Below are positions 4,710 through 22,537 of a DNA stretch of 32,101 bases, piece after piece. Source of the DNA: Candidatus Saccharimonadota bacterium (lineage in GTDB: Bacteria > Patescibacteriota > Saccharimonadia > Saccharimonadales > JAGQMS01). The stretch is from contig JAYSUL010000039.1 in assembly GCA_043719125.1 (NCBI GenBank), positions 1 to 32,101 on the forward strand, written 5' to 3'. Within the stretch, counting starts at the first letter, position 1; every line of letters starts with the position of its first letter. A program made the translations under genes and the position numbers. The notes under the pieces are model-generated. The model was not told where the DNA came from. It ran no database searches and saw only the letters and a list, made by a program, of their open reading frames with translations.

Positions 4710-5444
4710 ATGGCACCACAAAATAAACTACTGCACCTAAAAGAATTTCAAAAGGTTTTGAAAGACTACAAACCTAGTATCGATGTGATCGATCTGCTAA
4801 ATCAATTAAAAGTTGTATTTCTTGTTGCTCCTGCTGCGTCCGGCCGGAATACTATCATCCGCAATATGATCATGACCGGGAAGTACTACTACCTTATATC
4901 GGATACCACCAGAAAGCCTCGTATCAATAACGGAGTGCCAGAGCGCAATGGAGCTGAGTATTGGTTCAAGACTGAAGAGCAAATGCTTGATGGGCTCCGT
5001 CGTGGTGAGTATATTGAAACATCTATTATTCATGAGCAGCAGGTTTCTGGCGCAAGTATCCAGGAGCTTCGAAATGCTCTTGAGAAAAACCTTATTGCTA
5101 TTACAGATATAGATATACAGGGTTGCGACTTTTTGCAGGACTATGCGCGCGGTGCTGAAAACATCTTTGTATTACCCCCAGACTTTGACGAGTGGATGCG
5201 CCGTATGGATGGACGAGGGGCAATGGAACCGAGTGAAAAAAAGCGTCGATTACAAAGCGCGGTAATGGAGATGCAGGAAGCACTCAAAAGGCCATACTTC
5301 AAATTTGTCGTAAACTGGGACCTGCGCTCAACATGCGAGCAACTACACGAAGAGATAGTAGACGGTATTTTTGACGAACAAAGGCAACAGGAGGCTAGAC
5401 ATCATGCGGTTGCACTACTAGCACGACTAGACTCTGAGCTCTAG
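4710..5444 (+). CDS. gmk: Guanylate kinase-like protein
   Basis: P-loop-like APAASGRNT, SDTTRKPR, NGAEYWF, IFVLPP and RRLQSA..E motifs. Upstream TTGACG(4672)-18-TACCCT(4696). Confidence 0.8.
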   Translation: MAPQNKLLHLKEFQKVLKDYKPSIDVIDLLNQLKVVFLVAPAASGRNTIIRNMIMTGKYYYLISDTTRKPRINNGVPERNGAEYWFKTEEQMLDGLRRGEYIETSIIHEQQVSGASIQELRNALEKNLIAITDIDIQGCDFLQDYARGAENIFVLPPDFDEWMRRMDGRGAMEPSEKKRRLQSAVMEMQEALKRPYFKFVVNWDLRSTCEQLHEEIVDGIFDEQRQQEARHHAVALLARLDSEL

Positions 5445-5468
5445 CAATCATACCCCCTAGAGTGCTAG
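5441..5468 (+). promoter_or_regulatory. CIRCE-like HrcA operator upstream of hrcA (10-nt spacer)
   Basis: CTAGCAATC-ATACCCCCTA-GAGTGCTAG versus consensus TTAGCACTC-N9-GAGTGCTAA, followed by an extended -10 TGgTATACT (5474-5482). Confidence 0.8.
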
Positions 5469-5487
5469 TTCTATGGTATACTGGGCG

Positions 5488-5650
5488 ATAGCTCCCATAG
5501 ATCGTAGCCTCGAGATTTTGGGTGTTACTGAGTGAGATAGAATTATATTTGTCTGATTGAGGCGAGTCGATTGATTCGTTGAAAGAAGAAAATATAATTA
5601 TAGCCACTCAGTTGTATTCAAAAATTGAGGATGTGATCTATGGGAGCTAT
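5488..5650 (+). promoter_or_regulatory. Long imperfect hairpin spanning the hrcA 5' leader (candidate cis-regulatory RNA or thermometer)
   Basis: Perfect 16-bp terminal IR ATAGCTCCCATAGATC (5488-5503) / GATCTATGGGAGCTAT (5635-5650), plus nested internal stems with many G-U pairs on the + strand. Confidence 0.8.
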
Positions 5651-5652
5651 TT

Positions 5653-6351
5653 ATGACTGAGAGACAAGCAAAGATTTTATCCACGATAATAGAGCAGTAT
5701 GCCGAGGTAGCAAGCCCGGTAGGTAGTGTTATGCTTGCCAAATTATTTGATGTGAGCAGTGCTACTATCCGCAATGATATGGCTGAGCTTGAACAAACGG
5801 GTTTTATCGCCCAACCGCACACTAGTGCGGGTCGAGTACCTACAGATAAAGGCTACAGATTCTACGTTAATAACATGACAGAGCAGCAATCAACTCCTGC
5901 CGAGCGTGGCGCCGAGCGTGCATTGACTGCCCGTGTCGGTGGCGGTGGTTCGAGTGAAAGAGTTATCAGAAATGCAGTTGATACGCTCGTAGAGCTTACG
6001 CACAATCTTGGCCTCGCAACACTTGGCGACCAACTTTATCTTAGTGGTTTATCAAATCTTTTTGGCCAACCAGAATTTATTCAACCAGGCCAGGTACAGG
6101 AAGTGGCCAGATTAATAGACAACCTTGAGCCATGGCTTAGGGAAGCATCGCCAAACGAGCCTCTCAATGTGTTTATCGGTAAAGAGAACCCGATTGGCCG
6201 TACAAGTGGCTGTAGCCTGATTATTTCGAAGTTCCGAAGTCCTTACTCCGATAGAAGTTATATTGGTGTTGTTGGCCCAACTCGTCAAAGCTATCGTAAC
6301 GTCATGGGGCTCGTAAGCCAGGCCGGTAGAATGCTAGAAGAGAGTCTATAA
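5653..6351 (+). CDS. hrcA: Heat-inducible transcription repressor HrcA (short form)
   Basis: MTERQ..IL, PVGS, SSATIRNDMAELE, QPHTSAGRVPTDKGYRFYV, IGVVGPTRQSY motifs. Located upstream of grpE and dnaK. Confidence 0.95.
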   Translation: MTERQAKILSTIIEQYAEVASPVGSVMLAKLFDVSSATIRNDMAELEQTGFIAQPHTSAGRVPTDKGYRFYVNNMTEQQSTPAERGAERALTARVGGGGSSERVIRNAVDTLVELTHNLGLATLGDQLYLSGLSNLFGQPEFIQPGQVQEVARLIDNLEPWLREASPNEPLNVFIGKENPIGRTSGCSLIISKFRSPYSDRSYIGVVGPTRQSYRNVMGLVSQAGRMLEESL

Positions 6352-6353
6352 TT

Positions 6354-6827
6354 ATGCCAAAAAAGAAACTAGATTTTGAAGAGCTAGCGAATAACCTGGC
6401 GCAGGAACTTGCTGATGCAAATGATGCGCTGCTCCGTGAACGAGCAGACGCCTCAAATGTACGAAGACGTGCCGATGAAGACCGTACTAAGCTGGGTAGT
6501 TTCTATAAAGCAAACGTAGTCAAAGAGCTGTTGCCGATACTAGATAATTTTGAACGCGCTCTCAAAGCGATACCAGCTGATATCGAGGAGCATGATTACG
6601 TCAAAGGTGTTCAAGGTGTGGTCAAACAGTTTGAACTGGCTCTTGAGAAAATAGGTGTTGAACGAATAAAGACAATTGGTGAGCACTTTGACCCCCACCT
6701 GCACGAAGCAGTGGCTATGGACGATGGCGAAGGCACCGATGAAATTGTCACCGAAGAGCTTCAGCCCGGCTTCAAGTTGGGTGACGAAGTAATTCGCCAT
6801 GCCATGGTTAGAGTTACTCGAAAGTAG
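6354..6827 (+). CDS. grpE: Nucleotide exchange factor GrpE
   Basis: RADASNVRRR, LLPILDNFERAL, FDPHLHEAV and VIRHAMVRV motifs. Confidence 0.96.
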   Translation: MPKKKLDFEELANNLAQELADANDALLRERADASNVRRRADEDRTKLGSFYKANVVKELLPILDNFERALKAIPADIEEHDYVKGVQGVVKQFELALEKIGVERIKTIGEHFDPHLHEAVAMDDGEGTDEIVTEELQPGFKLGDEVIRHAMVRVTRK

Positions 6828-6860: not shown

Positions 6861-7304
6861 ATGAATAGTAATATCCGTAAGGCTAACATGCTTGGATTTG
6901 AAGTTGGCGGCAATATCTTCAGAGCCACGAAGCTAAATTGTGAGTCTACCCAGCCAAACGGTGGTTTTGCATGTGCTTTAGCCGAATTAGTATCCACAGA
7001 CGAAGGAGCTAGAAGTATAGGTGCCCAAATTCTAGAAGCATGGGAGCATGATGATTTAAGCCTGCTTCCCGGAGAAATACAGCTTGGTATCGGCTCAAAA
7101 GGGTATGCAGAGGGTACATGTACGCACCCAGGGCGAATGGCAGCACATACTCTTGGTATTTTGATGGACGAGCGATCGATAGATGTCGGGGTGGTAGTTG
7201 ATGTCATGGATTGGATGGTCACTCGCGGGTTGGCATCGGATAAGTCCGTCAATCAAAACACATCGGAGCAACTAGTCTACGTTAGACCCAGCAGACATAA
7301 TTAG
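6861..7304 (+). CDS. Hypothetical protein (147 aa) between grpE and dnaK
   Basis: The ORF fills the gap and its ATG lies 7 nt after a perfect TATAAT (6848-6853). No family recognised. Confidence 0.65.
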   Translation: MNSNIRKANMLGFEVGGNIFRATKLNCESTQPNGGFACALAELVSTDEGARSIGAQILEAWEHDDLSLLPGEIQLGIGSKGYAEGTCTHPGRMAAHTLGILMDERSIDVGVVVDVMDWMVTRGLASDKSVNQNTSEQLVYVRPSRHN

Positions 7305-7374
7305 CACTCATATGTATTGACTGCTAATTTTGTTATCTGCTATACTATTAGCAGTCTATTGATGACTCTGCTAA
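7301..7374 (+). promoter_or_regulatory. Tandem CIRCE operators and sigma70 promoter of dnaK
   Basis: TTAGCACTC-N9-GACTGCTAA (7301-7327) and TTAGCAGTC-N9-CTCTGCTAA (7348-7374) overlap or flank TTGACT(7317)-18-TATACT(7341). Confidence 0.88.
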
Positions 7375-7420
7375 CGAGCAGTAAACAATATCTCTACTAA
7401 AATATAAGGAGAACAACAAA

Positions 7421-9328
7421 ATGGGTAAAATCATCGGAATTGATCTAGGAACTACCAACTCAGCCATGGCTGTCATGCAGTCAGGTAAGGCTGAGATTGT
7501 CGCAAACAGCGAGGGCGCTCGTACAACACCGAGCGTAGTTGCGATAAACAAAAATGGCGAACGTCTCGTCGGGCAAGTTGCTCGTCGTCAGCAAGTTACT
7601 AACAGTAAAAATACTATCTATGAAGTAAAGCGCCTTATCGGACGTAACTTTAACGACAAAGAAGTCCAGCGAGACATCAAGCTCATGGGCTATGAAATGG
7701 TCAAGTCCGGTACATCAGTCAAAGTAAAAATGGGCGACAAAGAATACAGTGCCGAAGAAATAAGCGCTATGATTCTTGGCAAGCTCAAGAGCGACGCCGA
7801 ATCTTTCCTTGGCGAGCCAGTTACCGAGGCAGTCATCACTGTGCCTGCATATTTCGATGACTCACAAAGGCAGGCTACAAAAGACGCGGGTAAAATCGCA
7901 GGTCTAGAAGTAAAGAGAATTATTAATGAGCCTACAGCCGCTGCACTTGCATATGGTCTCGACAAAGAGGGCAAGGCCGACGAAAAGATCGTGGTCTACG
8001 ACCTAGGTGGTGGTACGTTTGACGTATCAATCCTCGAGCTTGGCGATGGTGTATTTGAAGTAAAATCTACAAATGGTGACACTCACCTAGGTGGAGCTGA
8101 CTTCGACCGAGTCATAGTTAACTTCCTAGCAGATGAATTCAAAAAAGAGCATGGTATCGACATCACGGAAGACAAGGCAGCGATGCAACGTCTCCGTGAC
8201 GAAGCCGAAAAAGCCAAGATTGAGTTATCCAATACCAGCGAAGTAGACATTAACCTTCCATTCCTCACAGCTGATGCCGATGGTCCGAAGCACTTCGAAA
8301 TGAAGATGAATAGAGCAAAGCTCGAGAGCCTTGTAGGTGAACTCATTGACCGAACTGCAGGCCCTTGCGAAAAAGCTCTCAAAGATGCAGGTCTTAAAAA
8401 TAGTGATATCGATGCAGTTGTACTCGTTGGTGGTATGACACGTATGCCAGCCGTACAAGCAAAGGTAAAAGCCATTTTTGGCAAAGAGCCAATGAAGGGG
8501 GTAAACCCTGATGAAGTTGTAGCCGTAGGTGCTGCTATCCAGGGCGGTGTACTCGCTGGTGATGTCAAAGACGTCCTACTACTAGACGTAACACCACTAT
8601 CGCTTGGCATTGAGACGATGGGGGGTATTGCGACTAAGCTCATTGAGCGAAACACAACTATCCCATCCAGTAAAAGCGAAGTATTTTCAACTGCAGCTGA
8701 TAATCAACCCCAGGTTGAAATTCACGTTGTGCAGGGTGAGCGAGATATGGTCGCTGACAACAAATCACTTGGTAGGTTCATCCTTGATGGAATCCCATCT
8801 GCACCACGTGGCGTACCACAAATTGAAGTTACCTTTAACATAGACGCCAATGGTATCTTGAACGTAACAGCTAAGGATAAGGGTTCTGGCAAAGAGCAGA
8901 GCATCACTATCCAAGGCAGCTCAGGACTTAGCAAAGAAGAAGTCGAAAAAATGGCCAAAGAAGCCGAAGCAAATGCCGATGAAGACAAGAAAAAGCGTGA
9001 AAAAGCCGAAGCAAAAGTAGGCCTCGATAACGCTATCTACTCAGCCGATAAAATGAAGTCAGAAAACGCAGATAAAATCAGCGAAGAAGATAAAAAAGTC
9101 ATCGATGACGCAGTAGAAGAAGCGAAAAAAACTGCTGGCAAAGAAGACGCTGACAAAGACGAGCTCGAAGCAGCCGGCAAAGCGCTAACAGATGCAATCA
9201 TGCCAATCGGTGCAAAAATGTACGAACAGACCCAAAAAGACGCACCAGCCGATGGCGCAGAATCAACTGATGAGAAGCCAAAAGAAGACGGAGCTGTAGA
9301 AGGCGAAGTCGTCGACGAAGAGAAATAG
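7421..9328 (+). CDS. dnaK: Chaperone DnaK (Hsp70)
   Basis: [53 protein letters not shown] and [11 protein letters not shown] motifs. Confidence 0.99.
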
Positions 9329-10563: not shown

Positions 10564-10594
10564 CTAGCACTCATTGGGGGTAGAGTGCTAAAAT
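10564..10594 (+). promoter_or_regulatory. CIRCE-like operator (10-nt spacer) overlapping the extended -10 of the SemiSWEET-dnaJ unit
   Basis: CTAGCACTC-ATTGGGGGTA-GAGTGCTAA (10564-10591). TGcTAAAAT ends at 10594, 6 nt before ATG 10601. Confidence 0.82.
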
Positions 10595-22371: not shown

Positions 22372-22537
22372 TACTCGACCTACACAAGAATCCCTGCCAT
22401 CCCAGACTTAACGCCAGAGTGATCTACGAACTTTTCCTCAGAATATGTACCTATGGGTACGTATTCTTCTGATAAAGCTCGCATCTCATCACTGGTCAGT
22501 AACTCTGGAGATGTCGAGGTTCTATGCAAGTCGAGTA
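22372..22537 (-). ncRNA. Candidate rod-shaped ncRNA (166-nt imperfect hairpin)
   Basis: Nested inverted repeats from TACTCGAC/GTCGAGTA at the ends to AGAATATGTACC/GGTACGTATTCT at the apex. Most mismatches are C-A on +, which are G-U on -. Confidence 0.6.

Follow-up and report, generated by a model that had tools for sequence, protein, structure and literature searches.

The long hairpin in front of hrcA in a Candidatus Saccharimonadota genome is very probably a recently inserted, transposon-like repeat rather than a conserved RNA thermometer

The hrcA locus and its hairpin

The subject of this work is the region between gmk and hrcA in a Candidatus Saccharimonadota bacterium, located in a window that comprises positions 1-32,101 (forward strand) of contig JAYSUL010000039.1 from assembly GCA_043719125.1, a genome of 644 kb that is 72 % complete. 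Here, hrcA is followed by grpE and dnaK and is preceded by a repeat resembling the controlling inverted repeat of chaperone expression (CIRCE), a -10 box and a hairpin of 163 nt that reaches almost to the start codon (Table 1). A first-pass annotation, made from the letters alone, had taken this hairpin for a candidate new RNA thermometer that hides the Shine-Dalgarno (SD) sequence of hrcA. The evidence assembled below leads us, with considerable confidence, to a different reading: the hairpin is a recently inserted copy of a mobile element resembling miniature inverted-repeat transposable elements (MITEs) and not a conserved thermometer, and the insertion has probably rewired hrcA.

Table 1. 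Features of the hrcA locus and of the inserted element, with positions in the window.
Feature	Position	Strand	Remarks
gmk (guanylate kinase)	4710..5444	+	neighbour upstream of hrcA
CIRCE-like operator	5441..5468	+	CTAGCAATC-N10-GAGTGCTAG; overlaps the gmk stop codon
Ancestral hrcA -10 box	5474..5482	+	TGgTATACT, with TG extension; colinear up to 5482 with the empty-site relative
Rod hairpin	5487..5651	+	unbranched, 67 pairs, 10 of them G·U (RNAfold)
5' terminal inverted repeat	5488..5503	+	perfect 16-nt arm; holds anti-SD CTCCC 5492-5496
Inserted-element core	5491..5647	+	157 nt; ends read as in B-type copies elsewhere; covariance-model match 5490-5648
Mirror promoter-like site	5542..5570	-	TCGACT-17-TATAAT
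Conserved directional apical core	5550..5592	+	TGTCTGA, short stem with 4-nt loop, GAAGAAA; columns ≥90 % conserved over 32 copies (14 genomes)
Outward promoter-like site inside the element	5571..5598	+	TTGATT-16-TATAAT, 10/12 matches; its transcript would not include the 5' arm
3' terminal inverted repeat	5635..5650	+	holds SD-like GGGAG 5642-5646, 6 nt before the ATG
hrcA	5653..6351	+	232 aa, intact; 57-78 % identity to the 58 relatives with a match
grpE	6354..6827	+	
dnaK	7421..9328	+	
Second family copy	22372..22537	-	A-type ends TACTCGACTT...AAGTCGAGTA; 11 nt after a DUF192 gene; 162.6 bits

All structural observations of the first-pass annotation hold. The two arms 5488-5503 and 5635-5650 are reverse complements at 16 of 16 bases, all of the nested inner stems reappear in the minimum-energy structure as parts of one unbranched rod, and CTCCC (5492-5496) covers GGGAG (5642-5646) in a stem that ends 1-2 nt before the ATG at 5653; likewise, TGgTATACT at 5474-5482 and TTGATT-16-TATAAT at 5571 are both present, and deletion of 5488-5650 leaves TATACT-7 nt-ATG. 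Two points can be made more precise: the non-Watson-Crick positions are indeed G·U pairs on the + strand, but they number ten rather than about eight, and a CIRCE-like repeat does lie directly upstream at 5441-5468, but with a spacer of 10 nt and one mismatch between its arms. RNAfold extends the basal stem to 20 bp (5487-5506 with 5632-5651) and places GATT (5569-5572) in the apical loop. The + strand folds at -80.2 kcal/mol, compared to -38.2 ± 4.0 kcal/mol for 200 dinucleotide shuffles (z = -10.4, 0/200 as good), and the - strand at -57.3 kcal/mol; this gap arises because the rod contains ten G·U pairs and not a single A·C mismatch on the + strand. A search of Rfam with the hairpin returned no family (best E-value 2.9, far under the gathering score). 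The old hrcA promoter, TGgTATACT, has no -35 element, and if transcription begins at this -10 box, the entire hrcA leader is, according to the predicted fold, one single hairpin burying the SD.

The hrcA leaders of relatives and an empty site

HrcA was found in 58 of 60 related genomes (a set that includes, for these counts and for the R2 counts given below, the unpublished genome G037), and the upstream DNA was read for 32 relatives, i.e. 29 loci and three genomes of the same family. All 32 carry a CIRCE with an embedded TTGAC-like -35 element, followed by a -10 box (TATAAT, TATACT or TAAACT) that is separated from the ATG by 8-10 nt, by a second CIRCE or by a short unstructured leader; the leaders of L034 and L035, which extend over 84 and 126 nt after the CIRCE, form no rod. 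None of the 32 relatives read shows the rod pairing in its hrcA leader, and none of the 28 relatives with enough sequence for a 183-nt window folded into a single rod upstream of hrcA (-32 to -66 kcal/mol, compared to -80.2 kcal/mol here). A lack of conserved pairing, which the first-pass annotation had itself listed as speaking against a thermometer, is what these leaders display (0/32 leaders, 0/28 single rods).

The operator is distinct as well: the CIRCE of the 32 relatives has a spacer of 9 nt with TTGAC or a similar -35 element, unlike the repeat at 5441-5468, whose 10-nt spacer lacks a TTGAC -35. A further CIRCE-like site with a 10-nt spacer lies in the window at 10564-10591 (CTAGCACTC-N10-GAGTGCTAA), directly 5' of a small open reading frame (ORF) and an ORF of 365 aa. 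Its spacer, ATTGGGGGTA, is approximately the reverse complement of the spacer of the hrcA site, ATACCCCCTA, and its occurrence suggests that the host genome tolerates such CIRCE spacing.

Contigs from two sequencing runs (X3 and X4), which belong to a different study from the likely source sample, cover the same locus in a close relative. They deviate from the window by 45 differences in 583 nt (4900-5482) and 20 differences in 749 nt (5652-6400), with flanks 92-97 % identical, and connect 5482 to 5652 via only TGCATCAA, i.e. TATACT-9 nt-ATG. This close relative has an empty site and the ordinary leaderless hrcA layout. The net extra DNA in the window amounts to 161 nt, the 157-nt core plus 4, so that its removal restores the 9-nt spacer length of the relative. 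The element was inserted into the 9-nt gap between the -10 box and the hrcA ATG after the split from this closely related lineage. All five listed differences within hrcA fall on third codon positions; 122 further differences over the whole compared stretch are not among these five. The first-pass annotation had mentioned an inserted element as a possibility, and this possibility is borne out both by the empty site in X3/X4 and by the membership of the hairpin in a repeat family as judged by the covariance model R1 (see below).

A dispersed family of rod hairpins

BLAST and blastn-short searches of the hrcA hairpin against its own assembled genome recovered only the hairpin itself, BLAST against 60 and 400 related genomes of the order (the latter including G342) gave only chance-level matches of 16-49 nt, and the exact two-arm pattern of the hrcA copy had no match in two public collections (genome contigs and metagenome contigs). 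The single-copy element suggested by BLAST was rejected when scanning for inverted 8-mers 130-200 nt apart, with subsequent folding of the candidates, revealed further rods. BLAST is blind to these copies because their identity is only about 50-76 %. Rods with a single loop and a length of 152-166 nt were found at C33:22372-22537 (the second copy in the window), C53:3946-4111, C17:7669-7832, C39:4689-4851, C6:281-446 and C62:5093-5257; they share motifs, and the two strands of each rod are separated in predicted stability by 9-26 kcal/mol, in most cases by about 20 kcal/mol (e.g. -81.0 vs -58.2 kcal/mol for 22372-22537).

A first MAFFT alignment of seven copies (A1) held the end types out of register, so that its RNAalifold consensus was not a full rod, and was replaced. 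Alignment A2, a plain MAFFT alignment of four copies that was not fitted to any model, yields a full rod of 68 pairs with 94.1 % of cells paired, as compared to 38-42 % for slid partners, and 25 compensatory pairs (0/500 shuffles as good). Covariance model R1, built from these four other hairpins of the genome, matches the untrained hrcA hairpin over its full length (5490-5648), on the + strand only, with 64.4 bits and an E-value of 1.5e-13. It also finds further untrained copies at C21:8937-9101 (118.8 bits) and C62 (49.9 bits), and model R2, made from six copies and used for the wider searches, scores the hrcA copy at 120 bits. Judged by these sequence models, the hrcA hairpin is a member of a dispersed family of rod hairpins.

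In this genome, the family comprises seven firm copies and two probable ones, namely C39:4689-4851, a 163-nt rod with B-type ends (see below) that neither model reaches at E ≤ 1, and C50:7153-7312 (model E-value 0.36-0.41). The seven copies whose neighbours were read are all intergenic, some sense and several antisense to their neighbours, and copies lie at a distance of 0-48 nt from either the start or the end of housekeeping genes, namely argS, yidC/rnpA, folD, a histidine kinase gene and a ClpB-like gene. At the 5' junction of the element, a -10-like TATAC(T/C) is frequently formed. Other palindromic structures were seen besides the family: a palindrome of 245 nt whose 61-nt arms match perfectly, right at the beginning of a contig (G000 C7:10-254), which could be either a genuine long inverted repeat or a fold-back in the assembly, and two hairpins of 102-109 nt beside tRNA-like sequence (G000 C8:524-625 and C57:6413-6521), which are matched by neither model and fall outside the family.

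Among the 60 relatives, R2 matches were found in 16 at E ≤ 0.001, under strict filters and with at most 47 candidates scored per genome; almost all of these matches span the entire element, about 160-165 nt. By far the richest is G016 (about 800 kb) with at least 131 forward matches among the 150 of 487 candidates that were scored; the end pattern CTGGACTTACGCAAAATC occurs 112 times in this genome, as compared to 0 times for a reversed control. G043 has 11 matches, G017, G030 and G032 have five each, and G036 (100 % complete) has four, so that related genomes hold anywhere between no copy and more than 130. Across the phylum, a sample of 150 other genomes contained one with the element (G504, 18 matches from 19 scored candidates). 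Comparison of coordinates placed none of the relatives' copies at hrcA. Concerning earlier descriptions of the family, there was no Rfam match, and full-text literature searches yielded no publication that deals with repeats of this kind in this group of bacteria.

Ends, target duplications and marks of mobility

Two types of ends recur across genomes, A-type ends of the form (T/A)ACT(C/G)GACTTAC... and B-type ends of the form AG(C/T)...CCC.../AAAACAAAA. The hrcA copy has B-type ends, but their inner part is unique to this copy. The family displays several of the features by which MITEs are recognized: it is short and non-coding, as judged by a size of 152-166 nt and a single rod over the full length, and it shows terminal inverted repeats, target-site duplication in the subfamily tested, many dispersed copies and presence or absence at an orthologous site. 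Many dispersed copies with target-site duplications are also what the first-pass annotation had said would point to a MITE instead of a thermometer, and such copies exist, with inverted ends and, in one subfamily, the duplications.

Duplications were assessed in the 20 best hits of G016, of which 15 copies of type (i) were used and five of type (ii) were left out. Nine of the 15 type-(i) copies have the same 4 bp on both sides, and five more match at three of four positions; shuffled flank pairs gave a mean of 3.16, with 0/5000 shuffles reaching 9, and no signal appeared at other widths. The duplicated targets are TAAA, TTTA, TTAA and TGTA. In four of the five type-(ii) copies, TATA was seen by eye on both sides, which is indistinguishable from a longer palindrome.

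The family also includes shorter forms of 110-139 nt. Among these, a 139-nt derivative without the 3' inverted end is represented in G016 by at least 11 copies that all score the same (e.g. L098:2973-3111, L099, L100, L101 and L102); the six copies compared share 98.6-100 % identity over 138-140 nt, and several copies are situated at the ends of contigs. Such near-identical copies suggest recent activity. At four G016 loci (L123, L114, L117 and L126), a long open frame runs through the whole element, either as in-frame insertion or by chance.

Strand-specific structure

In alignment A4, which comprises 32 copies taken from 14 genomes, the paired cells amount to 88.8 %, as compared to 33-45 % for slid controls, and 61 of 68 pairs show compensatory changes, although these counts lean towards structure since A4, like A3, was fitted to the model. 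Conservation is highest in the apical core, consisting of TTnTCTGA, a short stem with a 4-nt loop and GAnGAAA. In the six-copy alignment, the paired columns contain 57 G·T as compared to 9 A·C combinations. Copies have no preferred orientation relative to genes, neither in this genome nor in G016. The G·U pairs on the + strand had been taken as a pointer to RNA-level structure at hrcA; G·U richness is common to the whole family and independent of the direction of neighbouring genes, and thus gives no hint at selection on the hrcA mRNA. The hairpin shape and the G·U bias are the element's own biology and were not selected as an hrcA thermosensor.

A fold conserved to this extent could conceivably mean that the hairpins encode a structured RNA, about 160 nt long, that serves the cell, and that one such gene came to lie at hrcA by chance. 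The compensatory changes in 61 of 68 pairs across 32 copies and 14 genomes, the 88.8 % of paired cells (about 40 % when slid), the nearly invariant apical core, the strand-specificity of the fold and the frequent -10-like TATAC(T/C) at the 5' junction would all suit such genes. Nevertheless, we regard this explanation as highly improbable, given the target-site duplications, the empty site at hrcA, copy numbers that vary between related genomes from 0 to over 130, contig ends occupied by identical copies, the absence of a preferred orientation or of fixed neighbour genes, and the lack of an Rfam family.

How the element may move

No credible transposase emerged from profile searches, in which rve gave only two short fragments, both in G016. 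An autonomous element with the same ends was not found either, with no systematic search made for end pairs 1-3 kb apart, and the repeats common to the G016 loci are only 138-140 nt long. Partial matches to Y1_Tnp (HUH) occur in 20 of the 60 relatives, in ORFs of 194-301 aa (typically about 205 aa) and over profile positions of about 30-121. Such ORFs are present in seven of the nine genomes with at least three element matches (G004, G005, G016, G017, G032, G043 and G504) and also in 12 of 44 relatives without the element, a grouping that was made after the data had been seen and among genomes that are related to each other. There are up to nine Y1 ORFs per genome (e.g. L103, L104, L105, L106 and L141), and G032 and G049 also carry full-length IS200-like copies. 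For the four Y1 genes examined, no element lies within about 1.5 kb, and no Y1 match was found in G036 (100 % complete, four matches), G030 or G000. On these sequence matches, Y1-like proteins may be the movers of the element and serve as a lead only.

A Y1 (HUH) tyrosine transposase acting on single-stranded DNA, the mode of movement proposed for REPINs and their RAYTs, would be an alternative to a DDE enzyme and would account for the preservation of the fold on one particular strand. Consistent with this idea, every copy tested has its greater stability on the homologous strand, G·T outnumbers A·C by 57 to 9 in paired columns, the 139-nt derivative has multiplied in spite of having only one end, a search of five genomes for DDE_Tnp_1 gave no hit, and Y1 ORFs accompany the element in seven of nine element-rich genomes and occur in 20 of 60 relatives. 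On the other hand, the flanking 4-mers vary among copies yet match within a copy in 9 of 15 cases, as expected for the duplication left by a staggered cut, the four Y1 genes examined have no element within about 1.5 kb, and the two do not coincide throughout, since G036, G030 and G000 lack a Y1 match and 12 genomes have a Y1 gene without the element. Moreover, IS200/IS605-type Y1 enzymes are not known to make target duplications. Movement by a Y1 enzyme thus appears unlikely to us, albeit not far-fetched. Unlikely, too, is the broader idea that the family, in which one strand preserves the rod and the almost invariant, purine-rich apical core while compensatory changes alter the stems, lives as single-stranded nucleic acid, perhaps moved by Y1/HUH enzymes via a route undescribed for bacterial repeats, with the hrcA copy domesticated as a provider of a promoter and an SD; in that case, the insertion would have detached the master heat-shock repressor of a minimal genome from its CIRCE autoregulation.

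The reading as an inserted MITE-like element, which we favour, has to accommodate several points that weigh against it. At hrcA itself, the flanks read GATA and TATT, which are identical at two of four positions, so that no 4-bp duplication is visible, and the 9-13 bases flanking the copy are poorly alike the relative's spacer. No close sibling with the same ends was found in the own genome, in the 400 genomes of the order (by BLAST) or in the two collections (by exact pattern). No transposase for the element has been identified, DDE_Tnp_1 being absent from all five element-bearing genomes searched. Furthermore, the strand-specific conservation of the fold (57 G·T vs 9 A·C; 61 of 68 pairs covarying) is unusual for a double-strand DNA transposon, and a plain cut-and-paste MITE fails to explain the 139-nt derivative, which is one-ended and without visible duplication and occurs in many identical copies.

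Thermometer, RNase III substrate or rewired promoter

In silico, the SD of the full leader remains paired over the whole range of 10-75 °C (p ≥ 0.997). Freeing 5640-5658 is predicted to cost 24.8, 22.0 and 18.6 kcal/mol at 37, 45 and 55 °C, respectively, and an opening cost of 22-25 kcal/mol is too high for a melting switch; the suspicion of the first-pass annotation that the basal stem is too stable to melt simply agrees with these predicted values for 37-45 °C. Of the traits that define RNA thermometers, pairing of the SD is thus present, opening in the physiological range is not predicted in silico, and the leader is neither conserved in the 32 relatives nor matched by an Rfam family. With the pairing found in 0 of 32 relatives, an empty site in a close relative and an SD that stays closed to 75 °C, the proposed new thermometer as second control of hrcA-grpE is not supported, and it is the fallback ideas of the first-pass annotation, i.e. 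an inserted element, a bypass by an internal promoter or an RNase III substrate, that fit best.

A long hairpin of mobile origin could nonetheless have become a true post-transcriptional control of hrcA-grpE, either through heat melting or breathing or through opening by RNase III, so that only processed transcripts from the CIRCE promoter would be translated. The basal stem includes the SD and everything up to 2 nt before the AUG, and the old -10 box and the CIRCE-like site are still in place. RNase III is encoded in this genome, and the 67-pair rod, whose 20-bp basal stem comprises 16 perfect pairs, resembles the substrates typical of this enzyme. A precedent is available in Neisseria, where a Correia element that separates mtrCDE from the native promoter is transcribed with the mRNA and cleaved there by RNase III (PMC2649163). 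These points are countered by the predicted opening cost of 22-25 kcal/mol at 37-45 °C with an SD paired at p ≥ 0.997 up to 75 °C, by the absence of the hairpin at hrcA in 32 of 32 relatives read, a close relative being empty, and by the fact that family membership alone accounts for the hairpin shape. Control of this kind is hence considered improbable.

As an inserted element, the hairpin may offer another way to express hrcA. For a predicted transcript from 5604-5608, the SD core is paired with p of only 0.01-0.11, i.e. unpaired. Among 32 aligned copies, the hrcA copy alone has an SD-like word in its last 16 nt, and it alone has a strong outward TTGnnn-16-TATAAT, with no comparable site in the other 31. 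Because the SD and the outward promoter occur together in this copy only, hrcA is probably expressed from inside the element, and the two features were presumably either selected after the insertion or the reason why the insertion survived. SD-like words precede 27.7 % of the long ORFs, as compared to 8-11 % in controls, and a -10-like hexamer lies within 20 nt upstream of 22.8 % of them, as compared to 3-8 % in controls; judged by these counts, the genome uses both SD-led and leaderless starts.

On balance, we lean slightly towards a model in which hrcA would be expressed mainly from inside the element and translated via the element-borne SD; CIRCE control of hrcA would then be weakened. A route via RNase III ranks second in this model of hrcA expression. 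In mechanistic terms, the insertion would have given a long leader to an hrcA that had been leaderless and under CIRCE/HrcA control. RNAs initiated at the old CIRCE promoter would carry the whole element as a very stable hairpin locking the start region and would probably be poorly translated unless RNase III cuts the stem. Most likely, hrcA would instead be expressed from TTGATT-16-TATAAT, with a start near 5605, and translated via the SD GGGAG of the element's 3' end.

Further features of the heat-shock genes

Some observations concern the neighbourhood of hrcA and HrcA itself. The region upstream of dnaK (7304-7420) has its own CIRCE, TTAGCACTC-N9-GACTGCTAA, with TTGACT in the right arm, followed by TATACT, a second CIRCE-like repeat and an SD (AGGAG). 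Between grpE and dnaK lies a 147-aa ORF (6861-7304) without a Pfam match. HrcA comprises about 232 aa here, and the surrounding open frames are mostly 229-256 aa long in nearly all of the 58 matching relatives, whereas HrcA proteins of model bacteria are about 100 aa longer; the Pfam match of the HrcA C-terminal domain covers profile positions 107-215 only.

Comparison with known repeats and thermometers

The closest known kind to the hrcA element family is the Correia element of Neisseria (CREE/NEMIS). According to PMC2649163, CREE measure 153-157 bp, or 104-108 bp in a shorter form, and have inverted ends and a directional core; they use a TA target site, which is duplicated, and occur in more than 100 copies, often 5' of genes. 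The same source describes that they can create promoters, that their mRNA hairpins are bound or cut by RNase III, and that the copy between the native promoter and mtrCDE frees these genes from their regulators (PMC2649163). Both families are non-coding and of similar size (here 157-166 bp, with short forms of 110-139 nt), have inverted ends around a directional core, duplicate an AT-rich target and are present in dozens to more than 100 intergenic copies, often just 5' of genes, and the mtrCDE case has the same layout as the hrcA insertion. The duplication differs, being 4 bp long and TNWA-like in the subfamily tested here as compared to the TA target site of CREE. Additionally, there is no sequence likeness, the host belongs to another phylum, and the family described here is paired over its full length as a rod, with heavy covariation and strand bias.

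REPIN/REP elements are dispersed intergenic hairpins associated with RAYT (Y1) transposases. They resemble the present family in being dispersed intergenic hairpins with a strand-specific fold, and Y1-type genes are enriched in element-rich genomes here. However, the present family is much longer (about 160 nt), forms single rods instead of REP doublets and has 4-bp target duplications, and the Y1 genes examined are not flanked by elements. Rickettsia palindromic elements, of about 100-150 bp and known for in-frame insertion into genes, are likewise palindromic repeats that spread in very small genomes of host-dependent bacteria; here, in contrast, the seven copies with neighbours read are intergenic, and a few G016 copies lie in long open frames. 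Finally, the hairpin shares with ROSE and fourU thermometers a structure in the 5' leader of a heat-shock gene that pairs with the SD, but it has no Rfam match, its stem is predicted to be far too stable, and it is not conserved in orthologous leaders and is a copy of a mobile repeat.

Implications

The SD-burying hairpin before this heat-shock regulator is, on the reading favoured here, a transposon copy, which removes a false thermosensor lead. The underlying repeat family, defined by a covariance model, can exceed 130 copies in an 800-kb genome of reduced, host-dependent Saccharimonadia-type bacteria. Such repeats break assemblies and produce false "structured RNA" candidates, and they can rewire promoters where intergenic spacers are very short and many genes are leaderless. 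The hrcA locus thereby represents a dated natural experiment, in which 161 nt were inserted between the -10 box and the ATG of an operator-controlled leaderless gene while the gene itself stayed intact.

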